A stretch of 64,000 bases of DNA, from the NCBI GenBank assembly GCA_963731785.1, contig CAVSWX010000009.1, forward strand, positions 49,449 to 113,448. The letters are read 5' to 3'. The translations under genes and the position numbers were made by a program. Under the pieces are notes generated by a model, which was not told where the DNA came from, did no database searches, and worked only from the letters and a program-made list of their open reading frames with translations. Positions 10,240 through 64,000 of this stretch are shown piece by piece (position 1 is the first letter of the stretch; each line of letters begins with the position of its first letter). The DNA is from an uncultured Acidobacteriota bacterium. GTDB lineage: Bacteria; Acidobacteriota; Vicinamibacteria; Vicinamibacterales; UBA2999.

Positions 10240-10320
10240 ACGAACGCGGGCGCTGCCGGCGGCGTCCGGGCAACGGGCTGCCAGCGGTCTCGAGTCGCCC
10301 ACGCCGCGCGGGCTTGGCAG

Positions 10321-12412: not shown

Positions 12413-12453
12413 CGCTCCTCGGTCATCAGGAAGATATTCAGAGGGAGAAGCAG

Positions 12454-13477: not shown

Positions 13478-13503
13478 CGCCAGCTCTCGCCTCGGGGACA
13501 CCG

Positions 13504-16230: not shown

Positions 16231-16244
16231 CTCGGCCTCGTCTC

Positions 16245-17808: not shown

Positions 17809-17849
17809 GCGGGGGGCAATTATGGTGCAGAACGGATTGATGTCCCTCC

Positions 17850-41935: not shown

Positions 41936-41980
41936 GCCGCCGATGTTGATGCTGAGACAGCAAGGGAAGGTGGGGTGCCC

Positions 41981-43966: not shown

Positions 43967-43972
43967 GAGGCC

Positions 43973-44818
43973 ATGCGTATGCGACGGCTTCTCGGCGAGC
44001 CGATGCTGCACTTCGTGCTGATCGGCATCGCGCTGTTCGCCGCCTATCAATGGAGGGCGCCCGTCGATTCCGACGGGCGCCGCATCGTCGTCACCCAGGG
44101 GGTGGTGGACGACCTCGTCACACAGCACGCGGCGGCGAAAGGGCGCGAACCCTCGGCTACCGAGCTGAACCACTTGATCGAGTTGTACGTACGCGATGAG
44201 ATCCTGTACCGGGAAGGTGTGAAGCTCGGACTCGATCGTGACGACCTCGTCGTCAAGCGCCGAGTCCGCCAGAAGATCGAGCTGATCGCGGAGGAAGAGG
44301 CCTCGACACAGGCGCCGACCGACGCGGATCTGTCTGCGTACCTGGCGGCGAACCAGGGGCGCTTCGTGCAGCCGGCCATCCTCACCTTCGAGCAGGTGTT
44401 CCTCGGACAATCGACATCCGGCCCTGGAGTGGTGCGTGCGGTCGCGGTCACGCATCAGGCCCTGCGGAACGGTCGCGACCCCGCGACACTCGGCACGCCA
44501 ACGCTGCTGCCGTCTCGGATGACCCACACCGCTGCCGACCTGATCGCACGCGATTTTGGCGACTCCTTTGCCGCCGCTCTCGAGACGATGCCGATCGGCG
44601 AATGGGCCGGGCCGATCGATTCGAGCTTCGGGGCCCACTACGTGCGCGTCTCGGATCGCACTTCGGCCGTGGTGCCGCAGCTCGACGCGGTACGCGAGCA
44701 GGTCGCGCGCGAATGGGAGAGCGAGCGCCGCCAGCGCGCGCGTACCGACTCCTACGCCAGGATGCGCGAAGATTACGAGGTCAGCAGTGAAGCCACGATG
44801 CCGAAGGAGCAGAGGTGA
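43973..44818 (+). CDS. membrane-anchored PpiC/parvulin-type peptidyl-prolyl isomerase-like protein
   Basis: N-terminal TM LHFVLIGIALFAAYQW. ..EILYREGVKLGLDRDDLVVKRRVRQK.. and ..GEWAGPIDSSFGAHYVRV... It starts 7 nt after the DUF3604 stop. Confidence 0.6.
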   Translation: MRMRRLLGEPMLHFVLIGIALFAAYQWRAPVDSDGRRIVVTQGVVDDLVTQHAAAKGREPSATELNHLIELYVRDEILYREGVKLGLDRDDLVVKRRVRQKIELIAEEEASTQAPTDADLSAYLAANQGRFVQPAILTFEQVFLGQSTSGPGVVRAVAVTHQALRNGRDPATLGTPTLLPSRMTHTAADLIARDFGDSFAAALETMPIGEWAGPIDSSFGAHYVRVSDRTSAVVPQLDAVREQVAREWESERRQRARTDSYARMREDYEVSSEATMPKEQR

Positions 44819-45823
44819 GAACGCTGTCGTGCCTGCTGGTGACTGTGGCGCTGCTCCTTGCCGCGGTCGCACCTGCTCGCGCGGACGAGTTCAAGCCGGG
44901 CTACCTGCAGCTGACACAGGTAGACCGTGAGACCTACGACGTCCTGTGGAAGATTCCGGCGATTGACGAATCGACCGCACTGAAAGTGCAGCCGCAGTTC
45001 CCCGACGGGACCCAGGTGCTGACGCCGATGCGCAGCACCTTCTCACGCGGCATCACGGTGCAGCGGTGGCGCATCCGCGTGCCGGAGGGGCTCGACGGAA
45101 AGGCCATCTTCTTCTCGCAGCTCTCGGAAACACGGATCGACGTGCTCGCGCGTCTCGTGCGCCTGGACGGCACGGTGCAGCTCGAGCGCATCCTGCCGGT
45201 GAGCCCCAGCTTCGTCGGCAGACCCAGCCCTGGTCCACTGGAAGTCGTCAGGACGTACACGACCCTGGGGGTCGAACACATCCTGTTCGGATTCGATCAC
45301 CTGCTGTTCGTGCTCGCCCTGGTGCTCCTGGTGCAAGGGACCGGACGGTTGCTCCTCACCATCACGGCGTTCACGGCGGCACACAGTCTGACCCTTGCCG
45401 GGGCGACGCTCGGCTGGGTGCAGGTGCCGGGACCGCCAGTTGAAGCCTCGATTGCCCTGAGCATTGTCTTCGTCGCGGCGGAGATCGTCCACACCCGTCA
45501 AGGCCGCTACAGCGTGACGCGACAGTATCCGTGGGTCGTGGCGTTCACGTTCGGCCTGCTGCACGGATTCGGCTTTGCCGGCGCGCTGGCGGAAGTCGGC
45601 CTGCCGCAGGCATCGATCCCGATCGCCCTGCTGTTCTTCAATGTCGGCGTGGAGATTGGGCAGCTGCTGTTTGTCGGAGGGGTGCTGGCGGTGATCGCAG
45701 TCGGGCTGGCGCGCGGGACAACAGCTGCGAGTGTCGCACCCCGCCTGGCTCTGGCGCATCGCGCCGTATGCCATTGGCGGCCTTGCGAGCCTGTGGCTGG
45801 TGGAACGAGTCGCCGCCTTCTGA
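44815..45823 (+). CDS. HupE/UreJ-family membrane protein with an N-terminal periplasmic extension; frame break near 45714
   Basis: GVEHILFGFDHLLFVLALVLL..TAFTAAHSLTLA..FGLLHGFGFAGAL..FNVGVEIGQL. The tail ..WLWRIAPYAIGGLASLWLVERVAAF* is in another frame. The GTG overlaps the upstream TGA (GTGA), with AAGGAG SD. Confidence 0.8.
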
Positions 45824-45904
45824 CCGGCGTGCGGAGGCGCGGACCCGTGTCCGCCGCTGATTCGCTGATACCCCGCGCGTGAGTTCGCCGCGCCCGTGTT
45901 CCCG

Positions 45905-47229: not shown

Positions 47230-48571
47230 TTACGCGGCCGCCGACGGCGCCGCCGTCGAGGCCGTCAGGGCCTTGTAGTGACGCCCGATGCGCCACGCCA
47301 GGATCAGTGTGACGAGCGCGAGCGCCGCGTTGACTGCCGCGAAGCCTCGCGTCGGCAGCGCGAGGAATGTCGTGCCGGTGAAGACGAGGGCGGCCGAGAG
47401 CACGTCACCCATGCGGACGAAGAACGAGTCGATCGCCTGCTTGGCCGCGAACTTCTGTTCGTAGCTGCACGGCAGGAACAACATGTTGCGCACCGTGTTG
47501 TTCAGCGAGTAGTCCGCCGAATTCTCCATCACTTTGGCCACCAGCGCCGCATTCAGCAGCGGCACGAAGATGAGGACGTTGTAGACGCCGAACGACAGGG
47601 CCGGGAGGATCAGCAGCGCCACCGCCACGCCGCGGTGCTTGATGATGCGTGACACCACGAACAGCTGCAGGAGGAGGCCGAGGGCGTTGGCCAGGGAGAA
47701 ATACTTGGCGTAGAAGTCGCCGATGATCTGGGCCTCGCTCAGTCCCGGCGCGGTTTGCGGCCGCAACCGCCGCCTCCGCGTGTTCCTTGACGATGCCACC
47801 GAGGATGTACTCGCCGGTGGTGTTGATCCAGTTGATCATCAGGAGCATCAAGGCCATCAGCAGCAGGTACCGGGTCCCGAGCACCATCGTGAACGGGTTC
47901 ACGCGCGGCGCGGCGCTTGCCTGCTTCACGTGCACGGCGCCCGGCCGCCGGCCGCGCTCGACGCGGTCGATGTAGTTGGTCAGCAGCAACTGGAGGCCGA
48001 GCACCGCGGCGCCGAGCAGCATCAGCTGATTCACGCCGAACGGCTCGATCAGGCGATCGGCCACGCGCGCGCCCGCCACCGCGCCCAGCGACGCGCCGAG
48101 GCCGACCAGGACGAGCAGCCGTTCACCCTCCTCCTTCGAATACACGTCGTTGGCGAACGACCAGAACTGCGCGACGATCATCAGGTTGAAGATGCCGATC
48201 CACACGAAGAAGATCACCCCGAGCGGCACGCCGACCCGGGCCAGGAGATAGAACACGACCGGGCAGACGACGAAGAAGGCCGTGACGACATTGATCAACG
48301 TCATCCGCGGGAGCCTGGACACGAGGCGTCCGTAGGCGGGAACCGCGAAGGCCAGCAGCACGACCTGGCCCGCGGACAGGTAGCTCTTGAGCTCCGCGGT
48401 CCCCTCCGCGAGGATCAGCGCCTCGCGCACGGTCTTCAGGATGTAGTACGACATCAGGATCAGGAAGACGTTCGTGCCGAGCAGCAGCGCGGTGCGGGCC
48501 TCACCGGGGCGGACGACGGTGAACAGGTTGAGGAACCGTTCGAGTCCGGAGGCGCGAGTTGCGTCGCTCAT
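47230..48571 (-). CDS. TLC/Npt-type (ADP/ATP-translocase-like) nucleotide-transporter family protein; frame break near 47750
   Basis: FLNLFTVVRPGEARTALLLGTNVFLILMSYYILKTVREALIL..AQFWSFANDVYSKEEGERL.. in ORF 47405..48571. The C-terminal TMs (..ENSADYSLNNTVRNMLFLP..AKQAIDSFFVRMGD..) are in ORF 47230..47799. Family assignment is from motif memory. Confidence 0.65.
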
Positions 48572-48574
48572 GCG

Positions 48575-50718
48575 TCACTCCACCCAGTGCAGGACGTTGC
48601 GCAGGATCGACCAGCGCGGCCGGCGCGGCGCCGCGTCCTGTCCGAGAATCCAATGCGCGTAGGCGGCGTCGATCGTGCCGTCCTTGCGCTTCAACGCGAT
48701 CCAGGTGTTGACGAACGCCGCCAGGGCCGGATCGTGTTTGGCGATCGGATACGCAAGCGGTACCCGGATCGGCGCCGGGGCGGGCACGACGACCGAGTAC
48801 GCCGGGTGCATCAGCGTCCAGGCGGATCCACGCTCGGCGGGCAGCGCCAGCGCGTCGGCGTGAGGGGCGGCGCGGTCGAACAGTTGCTCGATGCCGCCCT
48901 CGTGCACCTGGATCGTGGCCCGCGGCAACAGCTCGCGGAGCCTGCGCACGTAGTAGGGCACGTCGGACACGGCGATCGTCGAGTGCGCCCTGCTCGCGGA
49001 TCGCGTCCCAGCTCGCAAACCGTTCGCGCTGGTCGTCCGGCACGACGAACGCCATGGTTTCGTCCAGATACGACTCCGAGAACAGGACCTCGCGGCGCGC
49101 GATCCGTGGTGATCACCACGCCCGACATCACGAGGTCGCAGTACCCCTCCGCGAGCTGGGCTGCCATGCGCTCGCGGTCCACCGGCACGAAGTCGAGGGC
49201 GACGTCCATCTCGCGCGCCAGGCGATGTGCGAGCTCGACGTCGAAGCCCACCAGATCGCCGCTCTGGTTGAAGAACGCGAACGGCAGCGCGTCGGGCAGG
49301 TAGCCGACCCGCAGCACCCGGCGCGCCGCAATGGTCTCGAGCGGCGGGAGGTTCGTCACCGGGGCCGGAGACGGGCTGCGCGCGACGGTGGCGTCGACCG
49401 GTTCGTTGAGCAGGTGCATCGACGCGAGGACGCGATCCTTCGAATATTCCGGCGACAGGCCCGACCCGAAGAGCACTCGTGTGGAGCCGATGACCAGCAC
49501 GGCCAGGGCCATGGTGACGCCGGCATAGCGGAGCACCGATGCACGGCGCCAGCGCAGATGTCCGGTGACCGCGCAGGAGACGAGCAGCGCCACCGTGAGC
49601 GTATGGACCGCCGCGACCAGCGAGCCGACGCGCGAGTTGATCACGCCGGTGGCGAGAAACAGCTGAAACGTATCGGCGGGAATCCGGAACTCGTCGAGGA
49701 GAAACGGCACCGCCGCGGTGAGACTGCCGAAGAAGGTCACCAACCCGGTGAGCGCCAGTTCCGGATAGCTCGACGGCGCGACCGGCACATCGGCAAACCA
49801 TCCCGCAAAGAGCACGAAGCTGAGAGAGAGCAGCTTTCCCGTGTGCGGAAAGTTGAAGGACGCGGGCACGATGACCTCGGTCAGCCGGCCCGGCTCCGCG
49901 TCGCCGGGGCGAAGCCGGCCCAGGATCGTCTGGCTCGCCTGCATCAGGCTCGGGAGCACGATGAAGAGGTCGCCGGCGATGCACGCGGTGATGAGCGGGT
50001 CGCGCGACGCGCCGAGCATGTCCCTGGCTCGAATCGGGGTGAGGGCGCCGACCAGCCCGGGAAGCACCCAGAGACTCACCAGCAGGGCCACCGCGACATA
50101 GGCCACCAGGTAAATCTGCAGTCGGCTCAACTGCTCCAGGCTCAGGGTTCCGGCCGCGTTGGCGGCGATCGCAAACAGTCCATACGGCGTCAGGCGGGTG
50201 ACGGCGCGGGTCGCCGCCGCGATCGCGTCCTTCGCGACCTTCAGGACGTCGAGCAACCGCTCCCGCCGTTCGACGCCGACCAGCGCGATGCCCAGGAACA
50301 GCGAGAAGAGCACCACCGCCGGCACCACGTTGTTCGCCAGCGAATAGAACGGATTCGCCGGAATGTAGAGGCCGATGAAGTCGAACGCGGGCCGTTGCTC
50401 CAGGAGGCTCGAACTGAAGAACGAGGCGTTCTGGACCGACGGGAAGGTCAGGGGGATCAGGAACGCGAAGGCCAGCGCCAGGATCCACAGGCCGCCAATC
50501 ACGGCCGCCGCCGTCGCGCCGAGCCCCCGGAGTTCGGACCGGCGCAGGGATCCGAGGCTGGCGACGATCGAGACGGTGATGTAGGGCAGCACCATCATCT
50601 GGAGCAGCTTCACGAACCCGTCGGCCGCCCATTCCAGCGCCGCCGCCTTCTCGCCGAGGAACAGCCCGGTGAGGGTGCCAAGCGCGAGCCCGGCGATGAT
50701 CTGCGTGGTGAAGGCCAT
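48575..50718 (-). CDS. dicarboxylate/amino-acid:cation symporter (DAACS) fused to a C-terminal family-3 solute-binding-protein domain; two frame breaks (near 49095 and 48978)
   Basis: Transporter core MAFTTQIIAGLALG..LQMMVLPYITVSIV..NFPHTGKL... Then VLRVGYLPDALPFAFFNQSGDLVGFDVELAHRLAREMDVALDFVPV..DLVMSGVVIT.. and ..IAVSDVPYY..LAYPIAKHDPALAAFVNTWIALKRKDGTID.. in two further frames. Confidence 0.75.
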
Positions 50719-51366: not shown

Positions 51367-51909
51367 TCACGCCTTCGGCTTGGGTGGGAAGTCCTTGAGA
51401 ATCTTCTTCACCGCCGAGGCGATGTTCTTGTCGCGTTTCTCGGCCTTGGCCTGGACGTCCACTTCCTTGACGCCCATGCCGCGCCACACGATCGCCTTCT
51501 TGGACGCTTCGGCGATGTCGACGACCAGTGTGCCGACGAGGATTTCGTTGACGCGCACATCGGTCGTGCCCCAGCCGCCTCCCCACCCGTAGCCGTACGG
51601 GCCGTAGCCGCCGTAGCCGGAGCTGAACGTGGTGATGTCCTGCTTCTTGTCGAACGCAATGTGATAGACCACGACCACGTCGGGCATGGCGTCGTTTTTC
51701 GACAAGCCCTTGGCCACCATCTCGGCTTCGATCGCGGCGACGATCCGGTTGTGCACCAGCGGATCGTTGACCTTCGTGCCGTCCTTGAGGGTGTAGGTCT
51801 TGAACTTCGAGAAGTCCGTCGTCTTGTCGAAGTCGAAGCTGGTTTTCTGCGCCAGCGCAAGCGTCGGCGCCAGGAGCACGATTGCTGCGGCGGTCAGGAG
51901 AGCTTTCAT
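51367..51909 (-). CDS. DUF4136-like secreted protein (copy 2)
   Basis: Signal MKALLTAAAIVLLAPTLALAQ. FSKFKTYTL..PDVVVVYH..GYGGYGPYGYGWGGGW..GTLVVDIAEASKKAIVWRG. It is the C-terminal 180 codons of ORF 51367..52644. Confidence 0.7.
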   Translation of the reverse strand: MKALLTAAAIVLLAPTLALAQKTSFDFDKTTDFSKFKTYTLKDGTKVNDPLVHNRIVAAIEAEMVAKGLSKNDAMPDVVVVYHIAFDKKQDITTFSSGYGGYGPYGYGWGGGWGTTDVRVNEILVGTLVVDIAEASKKAIVWRGMGVKEVDVQAKAEKRDKNIASAVKKILKDFPPKPKA

Positions 51910-51920
51910 GATGGCCTCAT

Positions 51921-52599
51921 TCAGAAACGGAACCCGAACGTGAGTGGATAGTAGGTGCCGTTGGCACTCCCGGAGCGCTCTTCGGCGCCGTCGGGCAGCA
52001 GTCGAGCTGTCGAACTCCGGTCCCCACACGTGGTGGAACCGCGACTCGACGAAGAACTCCGCCGTCTCGCCGATGCCAAACCCGACGCCGGCGCCGATAT
52101 TGAAGCCAAAGTCCCAGCCACCGCGCGAGCCGACGACGCCCTCGATCGGGTAGGTGCCGCACACATACCAGTACGGGTCACAGATGACACCGTTGCCGAG
52201 GTACTCCGTGATCTCCACGCTCCGGTAGTACATGCCCGGTCCGGCCAGCACATACGGACGGATCGTGGCGCCGGTGGGTGCGAAGCTCCCGATCCAGTTG
52301 AAGTCCAGCTGGTGCGTAGTGTGATTCGCCGAGAAGCGCGTCGCGCCAAAAAACGGCGCGTCGTCCTTGATGTCGAACCAGCGGTAGGCGTACTCGAACT
52401 GAAACGCTGCAAAGCGGCTCATGTCGAAGGTGACGCCGATGGCCGGACCCCAGCCGTTCCCGAAATGATCGCCGAGATCGCCCGCGTTGAACGTCGGGCC
52501 GCCGCCGATGTTCACATGCACCGTCTTCTGGGCGCTGCTGGGCGACGCCGTCAGCACCAGCAGCAGAGCCCCAAGAGCCACGTAACTCCCGATTCGCAT
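51921..52599 (-). CDS. small outer-membrane beta-barrel protein; frame break near 52005
   Basis: AGGAGG SD. Signal MRIGSYVALGALLLVLTASPSSAQ. The true C-terminus ..GTYYPLTFGFRF* (aromatic OM signature) is in ORF 51921..52412. Loss of that stop fuses it to the next gene in the ORF track. Confidence 0.7.
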
Positions 52600-52627
52600 G
52601 ATTTCAGATCCTCCTGGCATCCAGGGG

Positions 52628-52643
52628 AGCAAGAGGCAGGCCA
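52628..52643 (-). promoter_or_regulatory. sigma-54-type promoter upstream of the OM barrel-DUF4136-family X operon
   Basis: The minus strand reads TGGCCTgcctcTTGCT. The -12 GC is 30 nt from the ATG at 52599, with an AGGAG SD in between. Confidence 0.55.
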
Positions 52644-52854
52644 CGGTGCCGGCAGCAGGCCTGGCGGGCCGTTTGTCGCGTCATTCGCGCCGGGCACCGC
52701 CTCAGAGGGTGGCCGTCTGGCGATGGAGGGTGGCCCCGTCTGGCGATCCCTTGGTAGCGCGATGACAACATACCGTGACCGGGCGGCGCCCGGTGACGAA
52801 CCGCGTCCCCGATCAGGGGCGTAGGGCGGTCCCCGTCTTGCACCCGCAACGCTG

Positions 52855-54039
52855 ATGACCCTGCGGTGGTGCCTCGCAGTCATCCTCGGCTTGATGCCCG
52901 CCATCGCGGTCGCGCAGGAGACGCGCTCCGAGTCCATCGCCGCGGAACAGGCCGAGAAGGCCATGAATCTCGCCCCCCGCACCCCCCATTGGGGCGAGGC
53001 GCTTCTCTTGCGCTTTCAGCAGCACCTTGTCGAGCAACCATCCGGCTTTTTTCCCTATTTCGCCAGCGTCTACAGCGGCGGCGGGTTCACGCTCGGCGGG
53101 GGGTACCGCCACTTCACCGGCGACCGCACCCAGGTGAGCCTCGCGGGGTTGTATTCGGCCAAGGGCTACAAGCTGGTGGAGGCCACCGGCACGTCGCCCG
53201 GGCACCTCTCGGGTCACCTCGACCTGGGCGGCACGGCGTCCTGGCGGGATGCCACGCAGGTGGCGTATCACGGGCTCGGGATCGGCAGCCCCGCCGACAT
53301 CGACACCGCCTTTCGAATGCAGCAGGTGGTCGTGGGCGGCGACGCGACGGTGCGGTTGCACCGGTGGGTGCGGCTCACGGCCGCGACGGCGTACGAGGAC
53401 TACACGCTGAAGGATCCGACCGGGGATCTCGTCCCCGTCGAGGATGTCTTCACGCCCGCCACGGCTCCCGGCGTCGGCGTCGATCCCGCATATCTGCATG
53501 TCACGGCCTCGGCCGCCTTCGACTGGAGGCCGGCCGAGGATTACGCGCGGAGCGGCGGGCTGTACCGCCTCACTCGCCATCATTACGCCGATCGGGACAA
53601 CACCTACAGCTTCGATCGGCTCGACGCCGAGGTCGTGCAGCACATTCCGATCGTGCGGGAGAACTGGGTGATCTCGCTGCGCGGCCGGCTCGAGACGACG
53701 CTGGACGACGAGGATCAGGTGCCGTACTTCCTGCTGCCCTCGCTCGGCAGCGGCGGCACGCTGCGCGCGTACAGCAGCTGGCGCTTCCGCGATCGCCACG
53801 CGATGCTCATGTCGGGCGAGTGGCGATGGATCCCCAATCGCAGGGCGCTCGACATGGCGTTCTTCTACGATACCGGCATGGTCGCGCCCCGCCTCGACGC
53901 GATCGCGCTGGACCGGTTCGTCCACGACTTCGGCGTCGGCATCCGCTTTCACGGGCCTTTGAGCACGCCGCTCCGGGTCGAAATCGCGCGAGGCTCCGAA
54001 GGCCTGCATCTGGTGTTCGCCGCGAGCGCGGCATTCTAA
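52855..54039 (+). CDS. Omp85-superfamily (bacterial surface antigen/D15-like) outer-membrane barrel without a recognisable POTRA domain
   Basis: Signal [22 protein letters not shown]-terminal [21 protein letters not shown]...VFAASAAF. Intact 394 aa. Confidence 0.7.
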
Positions 54040-55700
54040 TGATGTCCACACCCAGACGACTCCTGGCGCGACTGGCTCTCTGCGGGCTCCTGGCCGCGAG
54101 CCCGGCGCTGCTCGCCGGCGCCGAACGGCGTTTCTTCGACGACGATCCCTTGTCCCGGGAGCCCGACAGCCAGGATGCCTCGAACGTGCAAGCGGAGGAG
54201 ATCGATCTGATCGTCGATTTCGCGATCCACGCGTTTGGCCACCCCGGCGATCCGGCGCCAGACGTGCGCGCGCGCAACGTCAACACGATTGACGAGGTGC
54301 CGGACTCGAACTGGTTCACCAATCGTCTCCTGACCAGATCGATCAGCGCCGAGGATGTGTCGCGAGGTCCTGTCACCGGCATCGGGCCGGCACCGGGGCC
54401 GTGGGCCGTGGTGTCGCGGAAACTCGCCGGGGCCGCGCCCGGGTTCACGATCCGCGATGCGGGCGGTGACGTCTGGTTCGTCTCCTTCGACGCGGCGGGC
54501 CATCCCGAAGCCGCGACCGGCGCGATCATGGTCGCGAACAAGATCTTCTGGGCGCTCGGGTACTGGCAAGTGGAGAACCATCTCGTGACCCTGGCGCCGG
54601 CCAACCTCACCATCTCCGAGGAGGCGAAGTTCACTCCCCCATCGGGGCGGGAGCGCCGGATGGAACGGCGCGACCTCGACGACGTCTTCGCGCGGGCGCA
54701 TCGAAGCGCGGACGGCACCTATCGCGCCGTGGCCGCGCGCGCGGTGCCCGGCCGTCCGCTCGGTGGGTTCCGCTACCACGGCACCCGCCCGGACGACCCC
54801 AACGACGTCGTCCCCCACGAGCACCGGCGCGAGCTGCGGGCCCTGAAGGTGTTCGGCGCCTGGACCAATCTGTCGGACATGAAGGCAGGGAACACGCTCG
54901 ACACCGTGGTGACCGAGAACGGTCGCAGCGTGGTGCGGCACTACCTGCAGGACGTCGGGTCCACGTTCGGAACCGGCGCCAACGGCCCTCACGATTACGA
55001 CGAGGGGTGGGAGACGCTGTTCGACCGCGGGCTGACGGGGAAGCGCCTGGTGAGGCTTGGATTCGTCTTCGAGCCCTGGCTCACGGCGCCGTATGTGGAG
55101 CATCCTGCCATCGGGCGGTTCGAAGGCGACCGATTCGATCCGGAGGGTTGGCAGCCCCGTGTCGCCCCGGCCGCGTTCCTGCGGGCTCGCGCCGACGACA
55201 ACTTCTGGGCGGCCCGGCGCGTGGCGGCGTTCACCGACGAGATGATTCGAGCCGCCGTCCGGGCGGGCGGCTACTCCGATCCGGCCGCCGCGGCGCTGCT
55301 CGCCGATGTGCTGATGAAGCGCCGGCACAAGATCGCGGCGGCGTATCTCCCTGCGGTCAACCCGCTGATCGACTTCACCCTGTCAGGCGATGGCCGTCTG
55401 CGCTTCCGCAACGCGGCCGTCGACGCGGGTGTCGCCCCCGCGCCGGCCGGCGGGTACACGGCGAACTGGGCCGTCTTCGACAACCTCACGGGCGAGACCC
55501 GGCCGCTGGGGCCGGCCACCACGTCCCTCTCGAGCGACGTCGCGGCGCCGCCGCAGCTGCCGACGGCCGTCGGCGCATTCGTGCGGGTCCAGGTCGCGGC
55601 GGTCGTGCCCGCTCGAGACGAATGGACGCGGCCGGTCGATGCCTATTTCCGGCGGGCCGCCGATGGCTGGCGTCTCGTCGGGCTCGTCAGACTTCCCTAA
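54039..55700 (+). CDS. secreted 553-aa protein of unknown function with protein-kinase-like catalytic-loop motifs
   Basis: The ATG overlaps the upstream TAA (TAATG). Signal [40 protein letters not shown] (D-x-K-x-x-N) is followed 20 residues after that Asn by [10 protein letters not shown] (D-x-G). The first 391 codons of ORF 52866..55700 are an out-of-frame overlap. Confidence 0.65.
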
Positions 55701-55717
55701 CTTTGGAGCCGAAGCGC

Positions 55718-56296
55718 ATGCAACCACAGTCGAAATACATCACACCGGCCATCGCGGCGGCACTGGCGCTCGGGCTCTTCGTCGGGCTCGAGGCCATGGA
55801 CGTGAAGGTCGAGCACAACAAGGCGTTCGATTTCAAGGCGGTTCGCACCTGGGCCTGGAATCCCAAGGGCGCCGGCGACGTCATCATGGCCCGCACGCAG
55901 GAGGACGACGCGGCGGCGATGAAAGCGTACGTCGACCCGCTGATCCGGGATGCCGTGGCGACCGGCCTGATGGGGCGGCTGCAGCCAGCGGCAGCGCAGC
56001 CCGACGTGACGGTCACCTACTATCTGCTGCTCAACACCAATATCTCCTCGCAGACGGTGGGCCAGTTTCTCCCGGCGACGACCGCGTGGGGAATCCCGCC
56101 GTTTCCTCAGGCGACCCAGTCGCTCAAGGTCATGAACCAGGGCTCCCTGGTGCTCGATCTGACCGCGCAGGATGTCGTCGTGTGGCGCGGCGTGGCCCAG
56201 GCGCAGATCAAGCCGGATGCGCCGACCGACAAGCGGGAGTCGCTGCTGCGCGAGGCCGTACGCGATCTGCTCAAGCGCTACCCGCCGAAGCCGTAG
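55718..56296 (+). CDS. DUF4136-like secreted protein (copy 3)
   Basis: TM/signal ITPAIAAALALGLFVGLEA. FDFKAVRTWAW..PDVTVTYY..GSLVLDLTAQDVVVWRG..LLKRYPPKP. Confidence 0.7.
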   Translation: MQPQSKYITPAIAAALALGLFVGLEAMDVKVEHNKAFDFKAVRTWAWNPKGAGDVIMARTQEDDAAAMKAYVDPLIRDAVATGLMGRLQPAAAQPDVTVTYYLLLNTNISSQTVGQFLPATTAWGIPPFPQATQSLKVMNQGSLVLDLTAQDVVVWRGVAQAQIKPDAPTDKRESLLREAVRDLLKRYPPKP

Positions 56297-56304
56297 GTGC
56301 AGCG

Positions 56305-57250
56305 ATGGCGATGGGCGACAAGGCGCGCAACCCGCCGCGCTGGCGGCCGATATCGCGGTTCCCGGGCAATGTCGATTCGCCCGCTCCGTCTGCCTGGGTG
56401 GACGTCGACTTCGGTGCCTGCTCCCGCAGGGGCCCGTCGCGCGCGGTCAACGACGACCACTACCTGGTCCTGCGGCTTGGACGGCACCAGGAAACGCTCC
56501 TGACGAGCCTCCCCTTCGGCGAAGTCCCGTCGCGCTTCGACGAGTTCGGGTACGGGATGGTCGTGGCCGACGGGATGGGCCAGCGGGCCGAGACGGCCAG
56601 CCGCCTCGCCATCGCCACACTCGCCCACCAGATGGTCCACTTCGGCAAGTGGAACCTGCGGGTCGACGAGCCGGTGGCGAACGAGATCATCGACCGGGCC
56701 CACCGCTTCTTCAAGAACGTCGATGCCGCGCTGCTCGACGCGGCCAACGGCAACCCCGCCGGGTTGCAGACGACGCTGACGGCGGTCTTCAGCGCCGGCA
56801 ACGACCTGGTCTTCGCCTACGTCGGGAATTCGTCGGTGTTCATGTTCCGTGACGGAACCCTGATGCCGCTGACGCGGGACCCATCGGCCGCCTACGCGCA
56901 GCCCAGCCCGGGAACCAGCGGCGACGTGGCCGCCGGCGCGCCCGATCCGACTTACGTCGAAAGCGAGACGCTCGGAGGGGCCGGTCTACGTCGCCCGAGG
57001 GCGGGCGTCGAGCGCTGCGGCCTCCTGGATGGCGACCTCATCCTCCTGTGCACGAACGGCCTGACCGATGTCGTGGAGGAATCTCGTATCGCCGAGACGC
57101 TCCGGCTGCACAGCACGCCGGACGATCAATGTCGCGCGCTGGTGGATCTTGCCGCCGCGTTCGGGCAGCCACGATGACGTGACGACGGTCGTCGCCCACT
57201 ATCACATCGCCGCGCCCCCCGACACCGACGACCCCGCCCACCAGCCCTAG
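56305..57250 (+). CDS. PP2C-family (PPM) serine/threonine phosphatase, cytoplasmic; frame break near 57165
   Basis: VNDDHYLV, GMVVADGMGQ, VGNSSVF and LLCTNGLTD. Then ..DDVTTVVAHY.. in ORF 57068..57250. No signal peptide. Confidence 0.8.
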
Positions 57251-57266: not shown

Positions 57267-58950
57267 CTAGCGTGTGAGCACGACGATGACCGGTCCCCAC
57301 GCCGTGAGGATGATGTTCCCGATGGCATACGGCACGGTGTAGCCGAGCACCGGAAGCTTGCTTTGCGACTCGTCCTGGATCGCTCGCAGCGCCGCCGTCA
57401 TGGTGCCGGCGCCGGCGCACGCGCCGAACAGGATCAGGGGGTTCATCTTCAGGACGTGCAGCCCGAAGAGCAGCGTCACGAGATGCGGTATGAGCGCCAC
57501 CACCATCCCGACGAACAGCAGGCTCAGCCCGGTCTCGCGAAGCCCGGACACGAACGTCGGGCCGGCGGTCAATCCGACGACGCCGATGAAGACCGCAAGG
57601 CCGACGGTGTCGAAGATCCAGAGGGCCGGTTCGGGGATTCTGCCGAACGTCGGATACACCGAGCGGAGCCAGCCGAAGATCAGGCCCATGATGAGCGCGC
57701 CGCCGCTGCTGGTCAGCGTCAGCGGAAGCCCACCGATCGTGACCGTCGCCAGCCCGATGAGTCCGCCGATCACGATACCCACGCCGAGGAACACGACGTC
57801 CGACTCGCTGGACGGACGTTCGATGTAGCCCAGCGCCGCGCCGGCGCGCTCCACATCCCGCTGGGCGCCGCCGAGCCGGAGAATGTCGCCCCGGTTGATG
57901 ATCGTGTCGGGGATGAAGGGAATCTCCTCGCCACCGCGGATCAGCTTGGCAAGGACGACGCCTCGCCCGTGTTGCTGCGCCAGGACGTTGAGCGGCTGCT
58001 CCACCGCACTCTCGTTTCGTCACCACCACGTCGAGCGTGGCCATCGGAAAGCCGAGAAGCTCGGGGTCCTCGAGCTCCTCTCCGAGCGGCAGCTTCCCAC
58101 CGAGCAGCACCCGCCGCCGTGCCCCGATCGCCACAACGTCGCCCGACTGCAGAACGGTGTCCGGAGCGCCGTCGATCAGCTCCGTCCCCCGCCGGATGCG
58201 TTCCACGAAGACCCGATCGGGGCTGCCGTAGCGTTCGAGATCCGCGACGGTCCGGCCCGCCGCGGCTCCGGCGATGCGAAACGCGCGAATGCTCCATTCC
58301 TTGTAGGCCAACCGAACGGCGTCGTCCGCGGCTCCGCCTGCCGCCAGCGCCTCAGCCGCGAGTTTCCGGGCTTCTTCCTTCAGGTTGATTCGAAGCAGAC
58401 GCGGAGCCCCGGACGACAGAAACCAGATGACCAGTCCCGTGCCAACCAGATAGGTGACCGCATACGCCACCGGGATGTTGTTCTTCAGCCGCGTCTTCTC
58501 GGCCTCCGGGATATCGAGCCGATCGATCGTGTCGCTGGCCGTGCCGATGACGGTCGATTCCGTGAACGCCCCGGCCATCAGCCCCGCCGCCGTTCCGCTG
58601 TCGTAGCTAAACAGGCGCGCCGCCACGAGCGTCGTCACCAGGCTCGCCACGCAGAGCACGAGGGTGAGCGCGACCTGGGGCAGCGCGTTCTTCTTCAGGC
58701 CGCGGAAGAATTGCGGCCCCACCTTGTAGCCGGTGGCAAACAGGAACAGCGAGAAGAAGACCGACTTGACCGTGGGATCGACCTTGATGTTCAACTGGCC
58801 GATGATCACGCCCGCGATGAGCGTGCCCACCACGTTGCCCAGCTTGAACGTCCCGATGCGAATCCGGCCGATGACGAAGCCCAGGGCCAGCACCAGAAAG
58901 ATCGCCAGCTCCGGGTGTTCTCGAAGCGAGGTCAGCACGTAGCTCATCAC
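57267..58950 (-). CDS. aspT: AspT/YidE/YbjL (AAE) family transporter, likely aspartate:alanine antiporter; frame break near 58008
   Basis: MMSYVLTSLREHPELAIFLVLALGFVIGRIRIG.FKLGNV..LFLFATGYKVGPQFF, two central TrkA_C-like segments, and a C-terminal half in ORF 57267..58004. It lies downstream of asdA. Confidence 0.75.
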
Positions 58951-59059
58951 GACACCTCACACGTTGACTGCACCTGGGGGTCCGGCCGGCCTGCACGCTG
59001 TGGATGGCGTCTTGATTGAAATGGCCCAGGATCCTGCGCGAAGGGCCCTATGGAGAGCG

Positions 59060-59098
59060 CTGGAACCGGTTGCGGCGTGCGGCCACAACCGGTTCCAG
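59060..59098 (-). terminator. strong hairpin between asdA and the downstream aspT (terminator/attenuator or processing site)
   Basis: CTGGAACCGGTTG (59060-59072) pairs with CAACCGGTTCCAG (59086-59098): a 13-bp perfect stem and 13-nt loop. Each arm contains the self-complementary octamer AACCGGTT. Confidence 0.5.
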
Positions 59099-59181
59099 CG
59101 CGTACGTCCCGCGTCACTTCGACATCACGATCGACCGACCGCCGAAAGCCGTTCGTCCGAGACTCCCGCCGCCAGCTCCAT

Positions 59182-60837
59182 CTAGCGTTTCGCCGCCGGT
59201 GTGTTCCCGGCCCCGGCCGTCGCGACGCCCTTGCCCGTGGCGGCCTCATAGGCCTGCCGGTAGCCGCGCGCAATCGCGCGCAACGCCCGGCCGATGTCGT
59301 CGTAGACGTGATCGTTCAGGTTCGCGAACGAGATGCGCACTGACCAGTCCGGGGCGGCAAAGCCGCTGCCGTTGAGCAGGACGATGCCGTGGTCCTCGGC
59401 GAGCCGGAACACGATGTCGAGGGGATGCACGTTCGCCTTCATCCAGGCGACCGCATCCTCGCCGATGTTCTTGCGGGCAAAGAACTCGAAATCGATCAGG
59501 CCGTAGTAGTAGTCGAAATGCTCGTTCGGGCCGACTTCGATGCCCAACCCCTCGAGCGTCGCCTCGACCCGCTTCTTGACGATGCCGATGCAGGCTTTCT
59601 GATAGTCCTTCTTTTCGTCCATCAGCTCGCTCAGCGAGAACATCGTCATCATGACCTGCTGTGGCAACGACAGGCCCGCCGTGTGATTCAGGCCGACGTC
59701 GCGGCTGTCGGCCACGATGCGGTCGATGAAGGCCAGCTTGCGCGGCTCGAGCGTGAGCCCGCCGTAGCGCTTGTCCAGCAGCTTCTTGATCGGCTCCGGA
59801 TGCTTGGCGATCATCTCGTCGAAGATGTTGTCCTCGTGGACCGCGATCGTGCCGAGGCGCCAGCCGGTACAGCCGAAATACTTGCTGTACGAGTAGACGC
59901 CGATGGTGTTCTTCGGGAACGCCCCCATCAGCGAACGGAAGCCCGGTACGAAGGTGCCGTAGACGTCGTCGGTCAGCAGGATGAGGTCGGGCCGCTTCTC
60001 GAGGATGGCCCCGATCTTCTTGATCGTCTCGGGGGACACCGCTACGGCGTAGGGGTTGCCCGGGTTGACGATGAAGAACGCCTTGATCTTCGGGTCGAGG
60101 AGCTTTTCGAGCTCTTCATCCGGGTACTGAAACCGGTTCTCCTGCTTCGCGTGCACCTCGACGAAATGGAGGTCGTAATCCTCCAGGTGCGCCATCTCGA
60201 TGTAGGGCGTGAAGATCGGCACCCCGAGCGCGATCGTGTCGCCCTGGTTGAGGATGCGGTTGCTCTTCAACGATTTGAAGATGTAGCACATGGCGGCGGT
60301 GCCGCCCTCGACCGCGTAGATCTTGAACTTCCCTTTGGGCTTCGGGGTCCCGCACATCGCCCACTCCAGGTACTCGTGGACGATCTGTTCGTTGTGCACC
60401 AGCATCCGGTCCGGCACCGGGTAGTGGTCGCCGATGATGGAATCCACCAGCTCGTGGACGAACTTGTCGGGGTCGAAGCCGAACTTCTTCACCGCCCAGG
60501 GCACCATCTTCTGCAGGAAGGGCGCGCCCGGCATGTCGGCGTGCTTGGTGAGCCAGCCCTCGAGCCGGGCCGCGATGCCTGCGGCATTGGGCATGCCGCC
60601 GACGCCGGGCGGCAGGTCGAGCACACGCTTGCTCTCGGTGATCGCGAACTGCCCGAGCAGGAAGTAGCCCTCGCGCGGCTCGGTCGCGACCCAGTTCGGG
60701 TTGCCGCGACCAGCGTTGAGGTAGGTGAGGGAGGCTTCCTGCGCCGCCTTCGATGCCACTTTGGCAAGGAAGTCTTTGATCTCGAACGGGCCCAGCTTCT
60801 CGTACTGTTCGTACTTTCTGACCGCCACATCTTCCAT
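59182..60837 (-). CDS. asdA: aspartate 4-decarboxylase (bifunctional aspartate aminotransferase/L-aspartate beta-decarboxylase)
   Basis: AAGGAGA SD. YEKLGPFEIKDFL..LNAGRGNPNW..FIVNPGNP..YSYSKYFGCTGWRLG (PLP-Lys context). About 550 aa, intact. The ORF-track start at 60987 is too far upstream. Confidence 0.85.
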   Translation of the reverse strand: MEDVAVRKYEQYEKLGPFEIKDFLAKVASKAAQEASLTYLNAGRGNPNWVATEPREGYFLLGQFAITESKRVLDLPPGVGGMPNAAGIAARLEGWLTKHADMPGAPFLQKMVPWAVKKFGFDPDKFVHELVDSIIGDHYPVPDRMLVHNEQIVHEYLEWAMCGTPKPKGKFKIYAVEGGTAAMCYIFKSLKSNRILNQGDTIALGVPIFTPYIEMAHLEDYDLHFVEVHAKQENRFQYPDEELEKLLDPKIKAFFIVNPGNPYAVAVSPETIKKIGAILEKRPDLILLTDDVYGTFVPGFRSLMGAFPKNTIGVYSYSKYFGCTGWRLGTIAVHEDNIFDEMIAKHPEPIKKLLDKRYGGLTLEPRKLAFIDRIVADSRDVGLNHTAGLSLPQQVMMTMFSLSELMDEKKDYQKACIGIVKKRVEATLEGLGIEVGPNEHFDYYYGLIDFEFFARKNIGEDAVAWMKANVHPLDIVFRLAEDHGIVLLNGSGFAAPDWSVRISFANLNDHVYDDIGRALRAIARGYRQAYEAATGKGVATAGAGNTPAAKR

Positions 60838-60875
60838 TGTGTTCTCCTTGCCTACCGAGACATTCGAGCCAGGCT

Positions 60876-62571
60876 TCACGACAGCAGGATGATCAGGACC
60901 ATGCCCCAGATCGTCAGCAGCGTGTTGCCGACGGCGTAGGTCACGGTGTAGCCGAGCGCCGGGATCTGGCTCTTGGCCTGATCGCACACCAGGCCGAGCG
61001 ACGCCGTCGTCGTGCGTGCGCCGGAGATGATGCCGAGCGTCAGCGCATCATGGAAGCGGAACAGATACTTGGCGATGAACATCCCGAGCACCAGCGGGAT
61101 CGTCGTCGCGGCGGCGCCCCACAGGAACAGGCCCACGCCCTGCGTCTTCAGGCCGTTCACGAAACCCGGGCCGGCGGAGATGCCGACGATGGCGATGAAG
61201 ATGTTGAGGCCGACCGAGTTCATGAACCAGATGGTCGGCGTCGGGACGCGTCCGAACGTGGGGCGGACGGACCGGTACCAGCCGCCGATGATCCCCGCGA
61301 CGAGCGCGCCGCCGGCCGTGGACAGCGTCAGCGGCACCCCGCTGATGTTGAGGACCAGCGAACCGAACAGGGCGCCGATCACGATCGCCGCGCCGACGAA
61401 CGCCATGTCGGTCACGTCGGTCGCGCGATCGGGGACACCCAGCAGCTTGATGGCCACGTTGGTGTCCTGCGTGCGGCCGACGATCGTGAACAGGTCGCCG
61501 CGCTCGACCGTGGTGTTCGCCAGGATGGGGATCGAGGTCGCGGTGGCGCCGCGCGTGATCTTCCGCAGGAAGACCCCGCGCATCTCCGGCATGCTGGGCC
61601 AGTTCGGCGAGGGTCTTGCCGTCGACCGCCTTGTTGGTGATAAGGACATCGACGCCCTCCACCGGCACGGCCAGCAGCTCCCGATCCTCGACCTCGGCCG
61701 CGCCCTCACCGAGCAGCCTGACCAGCACCTCGCGAGCGCCGGCGACGGCCAGAACGTCGCCTTCCTGCAGGACGGTATCGGCGCCCGCCTCTTCGATCTT
61801 CCCGTTGCGGCGCAGGCGCAGCACGAAGACGCGCGAGTCAGGTACCAGCGCCTCGGCCTCGCTCGCACGCAGGCCCACGGCCCTTCCACCCTTCGCCACG
61901 CGGAACGCCCGCACTTCCCAGCGGCGCCACGCCGTGCCTGGTCCGCCGATTTCCTTGCTGCCGCCGCCGAACTTCTCCTCGTAGTCCTTGCAGGCGGCGA
62001 CGAGATTGATGCCGAGGAGCTTGGGACCGAGCACGGCGATCACGACCGCCGAGCCCATCGTGCCGAACATGTAGGTCACCGCGTAGGCGACCGGCATCGA
62101 GTCGATCAGCGCCTTGGCCTGATCGGCGGCCAGGCCCAACCGGTTGATGGCGTCGGTCGAGAGGCCCATCGCGGCGGAGATCGTCTGCGACCCGGAATAG
62201 AGTCCGGCCGCATACCCGAGGTCGTAGCCGACGAACTTCGCGATCCCGACGGGAACCAGCAGGCTGAACAGGCATTGGACCACCGTGAAGAGCGCCTGCG
62301 GCACGCCGGTCGTGGCGACGCCGCGGACGAACTGCGGCCCGACGCCGTAGCCGACCGCGAACAGGAACATGAGGAACACCGTCGCCTTGAGGGGCTGCGC
62401 GATGGTGATCCCGATCTGCCCGATCAAGACGCCGGCCAGCAGCGTCGCCGTGACCGACCCGAGGCCGATGCCCTTGAAGGTGAACTTGCCGAAGTAGTAG
62501 CCAATCCCCAGCGTGAGAAAGATCGCGATCTCCGGGTACTGCTTCAGTGTCGCAAAGAACCAATCAATCAT
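60876..62571 (-). CDS. second AspT/YidE/YbjL (AAE) family transporter; frame break near 61595
   Basis: [55 protein letters not shown]. The C-terminal half is in ORF 60876..61889. A paralogue of 57267..58950. Confidence 0.75.
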
Positions 62572-62625
62572 GATTTGCTCCGTTTGCCCTCTCTCAGATG
62601 CAGTGGCCGTGGGTCGCTGCCAGCG

Positions 62626-64000
62626 CTATATGGCGGCCGCAACCGCCGACTTTGACTTCTTCGCCCGTGCCTCCAGCGCCGCCGGGCTGATCAGCTTGAG
62701 CCCCAGAGTGGCGTCGTAGCCGTGGATCTCCTTCACGTCCAGCTTGCGCATGAACTCGATGGTGTCGGCCTTGATCACCTGCCCGGGCACCATGATCGGG
62801 AAGCCGGGCGGGTAGGGAATCACGAAGTGGGCCGAGACGAGCGGCGGTCCGGAGGCGATCCGCTTGTCGATCTCCGGGCTCATCAGCTTGATGTGCTCGC
62901 AGCCGTCGTCGTCGTAGGCCATGTAGAAGGCGCGCGCATGTCGCCTTCGAGCGTCGTGCCCTGCGGGTCGTCGCGGAACAGGTCGTGGAAGTGGCTGAAG
63001 TTCGGCAGGTCCGGGACGTCCTCGACCAGCGACTTCACGCGTGCCGCGAAGGCGCTGCGAGCGGCCTCACCGCCGCTCTTGAGACGACCGTCGATCTCCT
63101 GCGAGATCTCGACGAGCACCTTCAGGAGGTTGGCCACGTCGCTGCGCGTGTTGTTGATGTTGGTCTGCAGCAGGATCGAGTTGCGCGAGGTCTTGTTGAG
63201 CTGAATCTCGTACTCGGAAGCGAGCAGGCCCTTGAACTGGGTGCCGTCGTAGCCGGCGGTCCCGCACATCAACGTGAGCCTGGTCGGATCGAGGATGAAC
63301 TCGTCTTCGCGGAAGGCGCGGTCCGCATCCGCCCAGGTGGCGCCGCCCTCGGTGTAGCTCTTGAGGCCGGACTGCCGGAACTCGGCCGGCACCATCTGCT
63401 CGACGTCGAGCACCCGGAAGTACTTGGACACCAGCGGATGCGTGTTCACCGCGACGCGGATCTCGATGGCGAGCTGGATGGCCTGCATGACCATCTCGTA
63501 GCCTTCGAGCTCCATCTGCCGGCGGGCCACGTCGAGCGAGGCGATGATCTGCTGGTTGGGAGAGGTCGAGGCGTGCGTGAAGACCGCCTCCTTGAAGGCC
63601 TGTTCGTGCCGGTGGTAATCCTCGTCGGCCACCACCACCATCGAACCCTGCCGCAGGGCCGACATCGACTTGTGCGTCGAGTTCGTCTGGTAGACGCGCA
63701 GCTTGGCCTTGCGCGGATCGGGGATGAGCCGGGTGTCGAGCACGCGTGGGTCCTTGGGATCGAGGTCGGCGCCGAGCAGCTTCTCCTGCGCGAGGTACCG
63801 CTCCAGATACGCGGCGTCGGCGAAGGCCTCCTTGAGGGCCGCGCGCGCGCCCATCGCCGTGCGCGGTCGATAGAGCGGTGACCAGCGGGCGAAACCGAAC
63901 CAGGCCTCGTCCCACAGGAAGATGAGATTTGGCTTGATCGCCAGGCACTCTTCCATCACGCGCCGCACGTCGTAGACGTGACCGTCGAAGGTGCAGTTGG
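62626..64000 (-). CDS. Orn/Lys/Arg decarboxylase family (fold-type I PLP) enzyme; 5' end outside the window; frame break near 62931
   Basis: ..DEAWFGFA..YQTNSTHKSMSALRQGSM (PLP SxHK)..TSPNQQIIASLD... The C-terminal domain FVIPYPPGFPIMVPGQ is in ORF 62626..62922. The frame stays open to position 64000. Confidence 0.8.

Follow-up and report, generated by a model that had tools for sequence, protein, structure and literature searches.

In this study, we examined a decarboxylation/antiport locus at the end of a 64,000-nucleotide stretch of DNA from an uncultured Acidobacteriota bacterium (contig CAVSWX010000009.1 of assembly GCA_963731785.1, positions 49,449 to 113,448; hereafter, the window). 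The locus occupies positions 57267-64000 of the window's minus strand and consists of four genes, which encode, in the direction of transcription, the C-terminal ~457 codons of a long-form, Rv2531c-type pyridoxal phosphate (PLP) decarboxylase (62626..64000; Pfam OKR_DC_1); T1, an AAE-family/Asp-Al_Ex transporter of the canonical Gram-negative AspT type (60876..62571; TIGR03802, 623 bits against a cut-off of 547); AsdA, or AspD, a bifunctional aspartate transaminase/aspartate 4-decarboxylase (59182..60837; NF006755 and TIGR03801); and T2, a second AAE-family transporter paralogous to T1 (57267..58950; TIGR03802, 645 bits against the same cut-off). The decarboxylase gene has its stop at 62626 and runs off the window end, with its 5′ ~1.4 kb lying beyond (relatives have ~930 amino acids), and the spacers measure 54 nt between the decarboxylase and T1, 38 nt between T1 and asdA, and 231 nt between asdA and T2. 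A profile search and open reading frame (ORF) check confirmed the order, strand, coordinates, and family assignments given for these genes in a preliminary description made from the DNA sequence alone, and its proposal that the four genes form one conserved decarboxylation/antiport locus is borne out by 12 or more other contigs, of several phyla, in which the same order (decarboxylase, T1, AsdA, T2) recurs. Among named relatives, metagenome-assembled genomes of Methylomirabilota, NC10, and Rokubacteria are the closest.

The spacer between asdA and T2 contains a hairpin (59057..59101, minus strand) with a 20-bp perfect, GC-rich stem and a 5-nt loop, which had also been noticed before and which is real as judged by its folding z-score of −4.6 against shuffled sequences. 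A repetitive extragenic palindromic element was considered and rejected, the arm sequence being unique within the window. There is no U-tract at the hairpin, and a U-tract terminator scan of the window makes no call there. The hairpin sequence is not kept even in a 92-94%-identical relative (L095; L numbers denote the contigs and loci that we collected), yet L095, L096, L099, and L100 each have a different strong GC-rich hairpin in the same place just after asdA. Because the position is conserved in these four relatives while the sequence differs, we suggest a functional terminator, attenuator, or stabilizer that separates T2 from the three genes before it, probably in the form of a leaky terminator or an mRNA-stability element. 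A promoter consensus scan returned no σ70-like sites, and terminator-like sites occur at chance level; as far as transcript structure can be inferred, the decarboxylase, T1, and asdA are probably cotranscribed.

Three of the four reading frames (decarboxylase, T1, and T2) are each broken once by a single-base indel that the preliminary description missed, leaving AsdA as the sole intact ORF. We compared the indels between the window and five related contigs. The decarboxylase has lost one nucleotide near 62932, where the window reads ATGCGC-GCGCC and a 95%-identical JGI short-read contig (L086) reads ATGCGCAGCGCC, with the five related long contigs siding with the JGI contig; T1 has an extra C at 61593 and T2 an extra base at ~58009-58011, both absent from all relatives that aligned. 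Frameshifts in three of four genes are what a decaying set of pseudogenes would look like. We consider genuine frameshifts very unlikely, however, as every indel is confined to the window when it is set against the five relatives and the short-read contig, sequence conservation persists beyond each break with a third-position G+C content (GC3) of 0.87 to 0.95, and no in-frame stops or other lesions were found past the breaks in the three genes. At least two unrelated genes elsewhere in the window show like splits. According to Pfam, a thiamine pyrophosphate enzyme on the minus strand has its N and M domains at 15238-18072 and its C domain at 16248-17075 in another frame, and a TLC/MFS-type transporter (47233-48571, minus strand) is divided between two overlapping ORFs that cover profile positions 13-109 and 385-480. 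Sister contigs from the same ENA metagenome series, which we suspect to be long-read sequenced, have frameshifts at other positions. A GC3 frame-plot was too noisy to serve alone as a window-wide frameshift counter, and single cases were confirmed by Pfam. Because the indels are absent from relatives, conservation continues, and unrelated window genes are split likewise, the three breaks are most likely assembly indel errors, at a rate of about 1 per 10-15 kb, and not pseudogenization. The first frame of the thiamine pyrophosphate enzyme (15238-18072) runs on into an MFS/sugar transporter, and an intact 446-amino-acid counterpart of the split TLC/MFS transporter is found at positions 14414-15754 of L096.

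By its equivalog cut-offs, asdA is assigned as an aspartate 4-decarboxylase gene, with 753 bits for NF006755 (cut-off, 321) and 741 bits for TIGR03801 (cut-off, 435) and the whole profile covered. T1 and T2 share an architecture of two Asp-Al_Ex domains around TrkA_C (Pfam PF06826/PF02080). T1 directly precedes asdA, an aspT-asdA order that is also found in Ruegeria, Caballeronia, Azospirillum, Bacteroides, and Acinetobacter and that emerged as the Gram-negative order in an AsdA-centered survey of complete plasmids and chromids. In Caballeronia sp. M1242 (a T1-type gene, 64-67% identity) and in Ruegeria (a 52% relative of T1), asdA comes next after the transporter gene, and a search of the 8-kb flanks detected no homologue of the decarboxylase; the T1 signature (G76, I131, and R495-T-T-T) is identical in the AsdA-adjacent AspTs of both. 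In L002, L027, L075, and L089, T1-type genes accompany asdA although the decarboxylase is lacking or lies far off. Because gene order, clade, and signature match those of aspT-asdA pairs with no decarboxylase homologue within 8 kb, T1 is best read, at the level of sequence, as the canonical AspT of an aspT-asdA unit. The earlier division of the locus into two tandem decarboxylase-then-transporter pairs is probably wrong, given that aspT-asdA is the Gram-negative order and that T1 matches AspTs beside asdA. The partner of T1 could not be assigned by co-occurrence, for T1 adjoins both enzymes in most loci and synteny alone does not resolve the matter.

The decarboxylase had been taken for an Orn/Lys/Arg-family enzyme acting on basic amino acids. 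With the C-terminal 457 amino acids as the only query, and with aligned regions that are also very divergent, NCBIfam models of Ldc, Adi, and Odc score only 39 to 80 bits (80, 66, 66, 42, and 39 bits against cut-offs of 968, 1167, 1056, 794, and 1310, respectively, the highest being LdcC with 80 versus 968), and the fragment reaches no cut-off among them. It has more than 2,500 metagenome homologues, for which the JGI label is mostly "arginine decarboxylase." For comparison with the PDB, we used P0012, a full-length homologue that is 85% identical to the window decarboxylase, and found Rv2531c (9N0O/9N0N) at an E value of 3e-217 (HMMER), compared to 3.5e-49 for the best classical enzyme, LdcA. 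By BLASTP, P0012 is 45.9% identical to Rv2531c over 772 amino acids (678 bits; Rv2531c residues 155-917), and the window fragment is 46.6% identical over 459 amino acids (388 bits). By our own conversion, 678 bits corresponds to an alignment score of ~198, above the network threshold of 185 that separates presumed isofunctional clusters (PMC13506015).

According to a report from 2026, Rv2531c from Mycobacterium tuberculosis is a "cloaked" L-glutamate decarboxylase of the long-form KOR family, the long form having four domains, including an extra N-terminal one, and about 900-950 amino acids; its structures are 9N0N/9N0O/9N0P (PMC13506015). The enzyme is inactive on Lys/Orn/Arg and converts glutamate to γ-aminobutyrate (GABA) in vivo and in vitro; its deletion lowers cellular GABA by ~84%, and the recombinant protein requires Mg2+ and has a K0.5 of ~0.5 M for glutamate (PMC13506015). 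The long form recurs in relatives of the window enzyme, whose own 5′ half lies outside the window: genes of 929-930 amino acids are present in the syntenic relatives L097 and L100, and 81 of 83 loci encode a homologous extra N-terminal domain of ~150 amino acids upstream in the same frame. Active-site residues implicated in Rv2531c are H405, K406, R576, T606, R718, and N731, of which R576 is the proposed distal-carboxylate binder, with other glutamate contacts proposed too, and the active-site arginines are absent from LdcI (PMC13506015). Among 84 homologues drawn from the collected loci, H405, K406, K570 (the PLP lysine, in our own numbering), R576, T606, and N731 are invariant in 83 to 84, and R718 is replaced by lysine in all. 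The window fragment itself keeps the PLP lysine (STHKS, K570), R576, T606, and N731 and has lysine at 718; the H405 and K406 positions lie beyond the window and are kept in 83 of the 84. At the R576-equivalent position, LdcI and AdiA presumably carry serine.

By these sequence comparisons, the window decarboxylase is assigned to the Rv2531c subfamily, and, judging from that subfamily, its substrate is most likely L-glutamate and its products GABA and CO2. A Lys/Orn/Arg decarboxylase served by an AAE protein that exchanges a basic amino acid for a polyamine, as the preliminary description had it, would agree with the Pfam OKR_DC_1 placement and the JGI labels. We give this idea next to no credence, since the Ldc/Adi/Odc scores fall so far below cut-offs of 794 to 1310, the nearest characterized relative is inactive on all three basic amino acids, the enzyme has an arginine at position 576 where LdcI lacks such arginines (PMC13506015), and the reported substrates of AAE proteins are acidic or neutral, not cationic (PMC12462496). 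Because Rv2531c decarboxylates L-glutamate and not Lys/Orn/Arg, the pairing of decarboxylase and AAE transporter, previously called unusual, is not odd: an acidic-amino-acid decarboxylase would stand beside an acidic-amino-acid exchanger.

Neighboring genes give some support for glutamate and GABA from an independent context. In Phyllobacterium sp. T1018, a gabT-like class III aminotransferase gene and an NAD-dependent succinate-semialdehyde dehydrogenase gene adjoin a pair of decarboxylase and T2-type genes; in Roseobacter ponti, a 52% decarboxylase homologue lies beside gabT; and in Rhizobium leguminosarum, a 48% homologue lies beside a Glu/Leu/Phe/Val (glutamate-type) dehydrogenase gene. 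Neighbor clustering found no gabT, gabD, or glutaminase family that recurs across the 83 loci, such genes being sporadic (Phyllobacterium, Pararhizobium, and Alcaligenes). The distant homologues of R. ponti (L103, 438-10849) and R. leguminosarum (L105, 2316-11879), with 46-52% identity and ~860-920 amino acids, are found with a biotin carboxylase-like gene, a C45 peptidase gene, and a peptide-type ABC transporter, with gabT or the glutamate-type dehydrogenase gene upstream and no AAE gene.

To place the locus in a broader perspective, one genome per species was scanned with an alignment of full-length decarboxylase homologues, and decarboxylase, AAE, and AsdA genes were located in the 10-kb flanks of 82 loci (the 80 best plus 2 found earlier). 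An AAE gene is directly adjacent to the decarboxylase gene, on the same strand, in 67 loci; in the others, it is near but not adjacent (5 loci), the contig is truncated (5 loci), or there is no AAE gene (5 loci, all from Bradyrhizobium). asdA is present in 48 of the 82 loci and absent within 10 kb in 25 of the 67 AAE-adjacent ones. Represented among the loci are Acidobacteriota, NC10/Methylomirabilota, Rokubacteria, Eremiobacterota, Binatia, and alpha-, beta-, gamma-, and deltaproteobacteria, and the adjacency outlasts changes in gene order and in AAE clade. With so few AAE genes in a genome, adjacency by chance should seldom occur (~1% by a rough estimate). The synteny of decarboxylase and AAE genes in other genomes, which the preliminary description had singled out for checking, holds, and the link is real and widespread. 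We found no description of it in the literature that could be searched, and transporters, antiporters, and gene neighborhoods go unmentioned in either Rv2531c paper, including PMC13506015.

Clustering of the 122 AAE proteins from the decarboxylase loci revealed several clades that differ in their genomic association. The T1-type clade has 48 members, 43 of them adjacent to the decarboxylase and 36 adjacent to AsdA. The 14 T2-type members follow AsdA, or the decarboxylase where asdA is absent. Clade c1 (13 members, ~30% identical to both T1 and T2) is in every case the gene right behind the decarboxylase and is never accompanied by asdA; c5 (8 members, ~53% identical to T1) also always comes directly after the decarboxylase; and c13 (13 members, mainly from Rhizobiaceae) usually appears in the order T1-decarboxylase-c13. 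With 381-388 bits, c1 remains below the AspT cut-off of 547, and its signature is Y66, R76, M131, and R495-S-H-S. Examples of this uncharacterized subfamily lie at L004 2063-3760 and L064 12321-14018, and there are 11 other loci. The seed of TIGR03802 was defined by adjacency to asdA, and the model also accepts AAE paralogues far from any asdA. PGAP names all AAE paralogues "aspT, aspartate-alanine antiporter" even without a nearby asdA (L083, Ensifer adhaerens p1, 8001-14464; L106; L087) and, in the same three loci, calls the 903-912-amino-acid enzyme just "decarboxylase"; together with the JGI labels, this probably reflects systematic mis- or underannotation.

We also compared the structure-derived aspartate-binding residues of Tetragenococcus halophilus AspT (T130, S132, Y167, L431, T496, and S498). 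The first five are kept in T1, T2, and nearly every AAE clade examined, including Escherichia coli YbjL, and are thus nondiscriminating; a prediction of substrate from these residues was abandoned, the core being invariant even in YbjL. The positions beside them differ, with I131 and R495 in T1 and E131 and G495 in T2. As a marker of decarboxylase-adjacent transporters, R495 was discarded, for it is also present in AspTs without a decarboxylase homologue in their 8-kb flanks. Glutamate transport has been reported within the AAE family (PMC12462496).

T2, and not T1, emerges as the unusual paralogue of the locus, T1 being AspT-like by clade and signature. T2 is 38% identical to T1, has the signature K76, E131, and G495, and lies behind the hairpin at the end of the gene cluster. 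T2-type genes follow the decarboxylase in asdA-free loci (L003, L004, L043, L060, L074, and L106); in L075, a decarboxylase-T2 pair stands apart from a T1-asdA pair on the opposite strand; and the single T2-type gene in the plasmid collection, from Phyllobacterium, comes directly after a decarboxylase gene. A T2-centered look-up yielded seven close homologues. Five (80-94% identity) belong to four-gene loci like that of the window, with a gene for a DcaP-type porin or a DASS transporter ahead of the locus, and three of these five contigs are syntenic with the window further on; the other two (79% identity) are in a glutaminase/aspartase/DASS/AAE/asparaginase cluster with neither decarboxylase nor AsdA. 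On these sequence-based associations, T2 is most likely the candidate partner of the Rv2531c-type decarboxylase, and a dedicated exchanger of its precursor and product is plausible. On balance, though with uncertainty, a nested arrangement, decarboxylase [aspT-asdA] T2, describes the locus better than two tandem pairs. A gene for a DcaP-family (dicarboxylate) porin lies directly upstream of the decarboxylase in L095 (1317-2558), L096 (1236-2489), L097 (1524-2738), and L100 (221-1495), and the window ends before the corresponding position; in Phyllobacterium (L106, 10282-11376), a gene annotated just "porin" follows the decarboxylase-transporter pair.

We think it slightly better than an even bet that the locus is a dual module by which a high-GC soil bacterium handles acidic amino acids, coupling Glu→GABA and Asp→Ala conversions to antiport. 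In the first module, aspT (T1)-asdA, aspartate(1−) would be taken up in exchange for alanine(0), and AsdA would strip the β-carboxyl group and use up a proton, so that the cycle generates a membrane potential and a pH gradient. In the second, the Rv2531c-type enzyme would turn L-glutamate into GABA and CO2 with the consumption of a proton, served by an AAE exchanger (glutamate in, GABA out) that is most likely T2 and possibly T1 as well. The aspT-asdA unit would thus be nested between the decarboxylase and T2, and T2 would be read from behind a hairpin that may attenuate read-through. Substrates and partners of T1 and T2 are assigned here by inference, and the physiological role is probably acid resistance or energy gain. 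Family-level gene identities, synteny, active-site residue conservation, and the nature of the indels are direct observations.

Several observations weigh against this proposal. The loci were picked through the decarboxylase, and common descent links many of them, so that these do not count as independent observations. The AAE-linked decarboxylase clade is only ~47% identical to Rv2531c, which leaves glutamate activity a prediction from sequence. Seven T1-type genes adjoin the decarboxylase without asdA, and T1 is not cleanly "asdA only"; ~12 loci hold the decarboxylase, T1, and asdA but no second AAE gene, and in these the decarboxylase would use T1 jointly with AsdA or else draw on glutamate from the cytosol. 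In the five Bradyrhizobium loci, the decarboxylase lacks an AAE gene in its vicinity, and T1 and T2 both pass the AspT equivalog cut-off. The last two points would equally fit genes that are colocated but uncoupled, with T1 (perhaps T2 also) serving AsdA only and the decarboxylase acting as a cytosolic enzyme of the GABA shunt or of pH homeostasis under shared stress regulation. The canonical AspT type of T1, the many loci with one AAE gene for two decarboxylases, the closeness of the Phyllobacterium enzyme to GABA-catabolic genes, and the recurrence of stress-island-like neighbors (PPK2, SulP-STAS, DUF3300/DUF2950, a response regulator, and a kinase) point the same way, and we know of no AAE neighbor of Rv2531c itself. 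We nevertheless regard an uncoupled locus as unlikely, if worth keeping in view: an AAE gene stands directly beside the decarboxylase in 25 loci without asdA within 10 kb, c1 is adjacent to the decarboxylase in 13 of 13 cases and accompanies asdA in none of the 13, and an adjacency that is maintained across phyla despite changes in AAE clade and order is hard to explain without a functional tie.

Two further points against glutamate:GABA exchange concern the substrate. The 79%-identical T2 relatives in the glutaminase/aspartase/DASS/asparaginase operon suggest transport of aspartate (or Asn/Asp) in that clade, and the K0.5 of Rv2531c for glutamate is high (~0.5 M) in a paper whose text does not contain the word "aspartate" (PMC13506015), so that the enzyme may act on aspartate or another acidic substrate. 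These observations, along with the presence of asdA in more than half of the loci (48/82) and the replacement of R718 by lysine throughout the AAE-linked clade, would suit a decarboxylase that acts on the α-carboxyl of L-aspartate to give β-alanine, or on another acidic amino acid, with transporters that bring aspartate in and carry neutral products out. We hold this to be quite improbable: the sole characterized family member makes GABA in vivo (PMC13506015), gabT/gabD-type genes are neighbors in Phyllobacterium and R. ponti, R576 and other proposed glutamate contacts are kept, and, with AsdA alongside, another enzyme decarboxylating aspartate would for the most part be redundant. The operon in question (L098 3879-11770, L101 2880-10921, and L102) comprises a divergent glutaminase, aspartate ammonia-lyase, a small ORF, a DASS transporter, an AAE protein, and asparaginase and has the appearance of a module for Asn/Asp (and Gln) catabolism or ammonia production.

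Returning to the dual module for glutamate and aspartate, a wider reading is that Rv2531c-type enzymes and AAE exchangers, including the dedicated clade c1, make up an unrecognized glutamate:GABA decarboxylation-antiport system of many soil and rhizosphere bacteria, often merged with aspT-asdA. We put this forward tentatively, as somewhat short of an even chance, and extend the same reserve to its range of hosts (Acidobacteriota, Methylomirabilota, Eremiobacterota, Binatia, rhizobia, and Burkholderiales) and to the notion that, through the merged operon, the two acidic amino acids would yield proton-motive force or protection against acid. Of the two parts, aspT-asdA is an established one; for the systematic link between Rv2531c-type enzymes and AAE proteins, c1 included, the literature that could be searched gave no description.

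The flanks of the related loci L002-L082 contain a recurrent set of neighbors that suggests a stress island: PPK2 (28 loci), a FixJ-type response regulator (25 loci) and a probable histidine kinase (19 loci), both called by eye from sequence, DUF2950/DUF3300 proteins (22-24 loci), SulP-STAS (18 loci), an AI-2E transporter (16 loci), a K+ channel-like protein (15 loci), and a bestrophin-like protein (8 loci). In Rhizobium sp. T136 (L087, 2102-3004 and 13010-13303), genes of the acid-stress kind, for carbonic anhydrase and an HdeA/HdeB chaperone, are also nearby. Within the window, an SDF (sodium:dicarboxylate symporter, Glu/Asp type)-SBP_bac_3 fusion at 48814-50718 (minus strand) has counterparts in L001 (1-524), where it lies beside a σ54 activator, and L096 (12268-14409); in relatives, it is a few kilobases from the four-gene cluster, and a role as transporter-sensor of acidic amino acids is conceivable. 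Genes for two DUF4136 proteins, an Omp85-like protein, an outer-membrane β-barrel protein, lipoproteins, and a PP2C phosphatase (51370-57174) converge on T2, and this outer-membrane/PP2C block is syntenic in L095 (13429-18355) and L100 (9766-17668). Further away (41975-45879), genes for a DUF3604 protein (764 bits), a peptidyl-prolyl isomerase domain protein, and a HupE/UreJ-family protein show no apparent connection with the locus.

For the window itself, our results offer a simple explanation of what had seemed an odd pairing and make the gene breaks most likely technical. Thousands of environmental genes of this decarboxylase type are labeled "arginine decarboxylase" or "decarboxylase," with neighbors named "aspartate-alanine antiporter" even without asdA. 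If the wider reading is true, these annotations mask a second widespread glutamate-dependent route of acid resistance or energy conservation in soil bacteria; rhizobia would have a candidate enzyme and exporter for GABA production; and the 2026 finding on Rv2531c would extend from the cytosolic shunt enzyme of a pathogen to a transport-coupled system. The poorly characterized AAE family would also gain testable substrates for clades c1, T2, and c13.

Compared to known systems, the decarboxylase most resembles Rv2531c: the two have the same fold, belong to one subfamily, and are 46-47% identical along their whole length, and the additional N-terminal domain (in orthologues of ~930 amino acids) is common to both, as are H405, K406, K570, R576, T606, and N731; the window enzyme differs in the exchange of R718 for lysine and in its context, as the window clade sits in transporter operons with AAE exchangers and often a DcaP-type porin, whereas Rv2531c is a cytosolic GABA-shunt enzyme (PMC13506015). 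The CadA/CadB, AdiA/AdiC, and SpeF/PotE systems for basic amino acids likewise place a decarboxylase beside an exchanger, and their enzymes belong to the same distant superfamily (wing domain and OKR_DC_1 core), but the window enzyme fails the Ldc/Adi/Odc models, its transporters are of another family, and its likely substrate is acidic. Aspartate:alanine exchange combined with AsdA is the established proton-motive cycle of Tetragenococcus. The aspT-asdA unit of the window resembles this AspD/AsdA-AspT system of T. halophilus in that AsdA passes the equivalogs, T1 lies 38 nt upstream in the Gram-negative order, and T1 keeps the aspartate-binding residues T130, S132, Y167, L431, and T496. However, T1 and T2 are only 33-40% identical to AspT from Lactiplantibacillus plantarum (taken as a proxy for the T. 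halophilus protein), Firmicutes have the reverse order, aspD then aspT, and the window pair is embedded in a four-gene cluster that also holds another decarboxylase and another AAE paralogue. In its proposed logic (glutamate in, proton-consuming decarboxylation, and GABA out), the locus may work like GadB/GadC of enterobacteria and lactic acid bacteria. The window enzyme is nevertheless of fold type I and the KOR family (PF01276), not a group II GadB, and the transporters are AAE proteins (PF06826 plus TrkA_C, PF02080), not APC proteins; the locus is not a member of the Gad system, and any resemblance between the two would be functional only.

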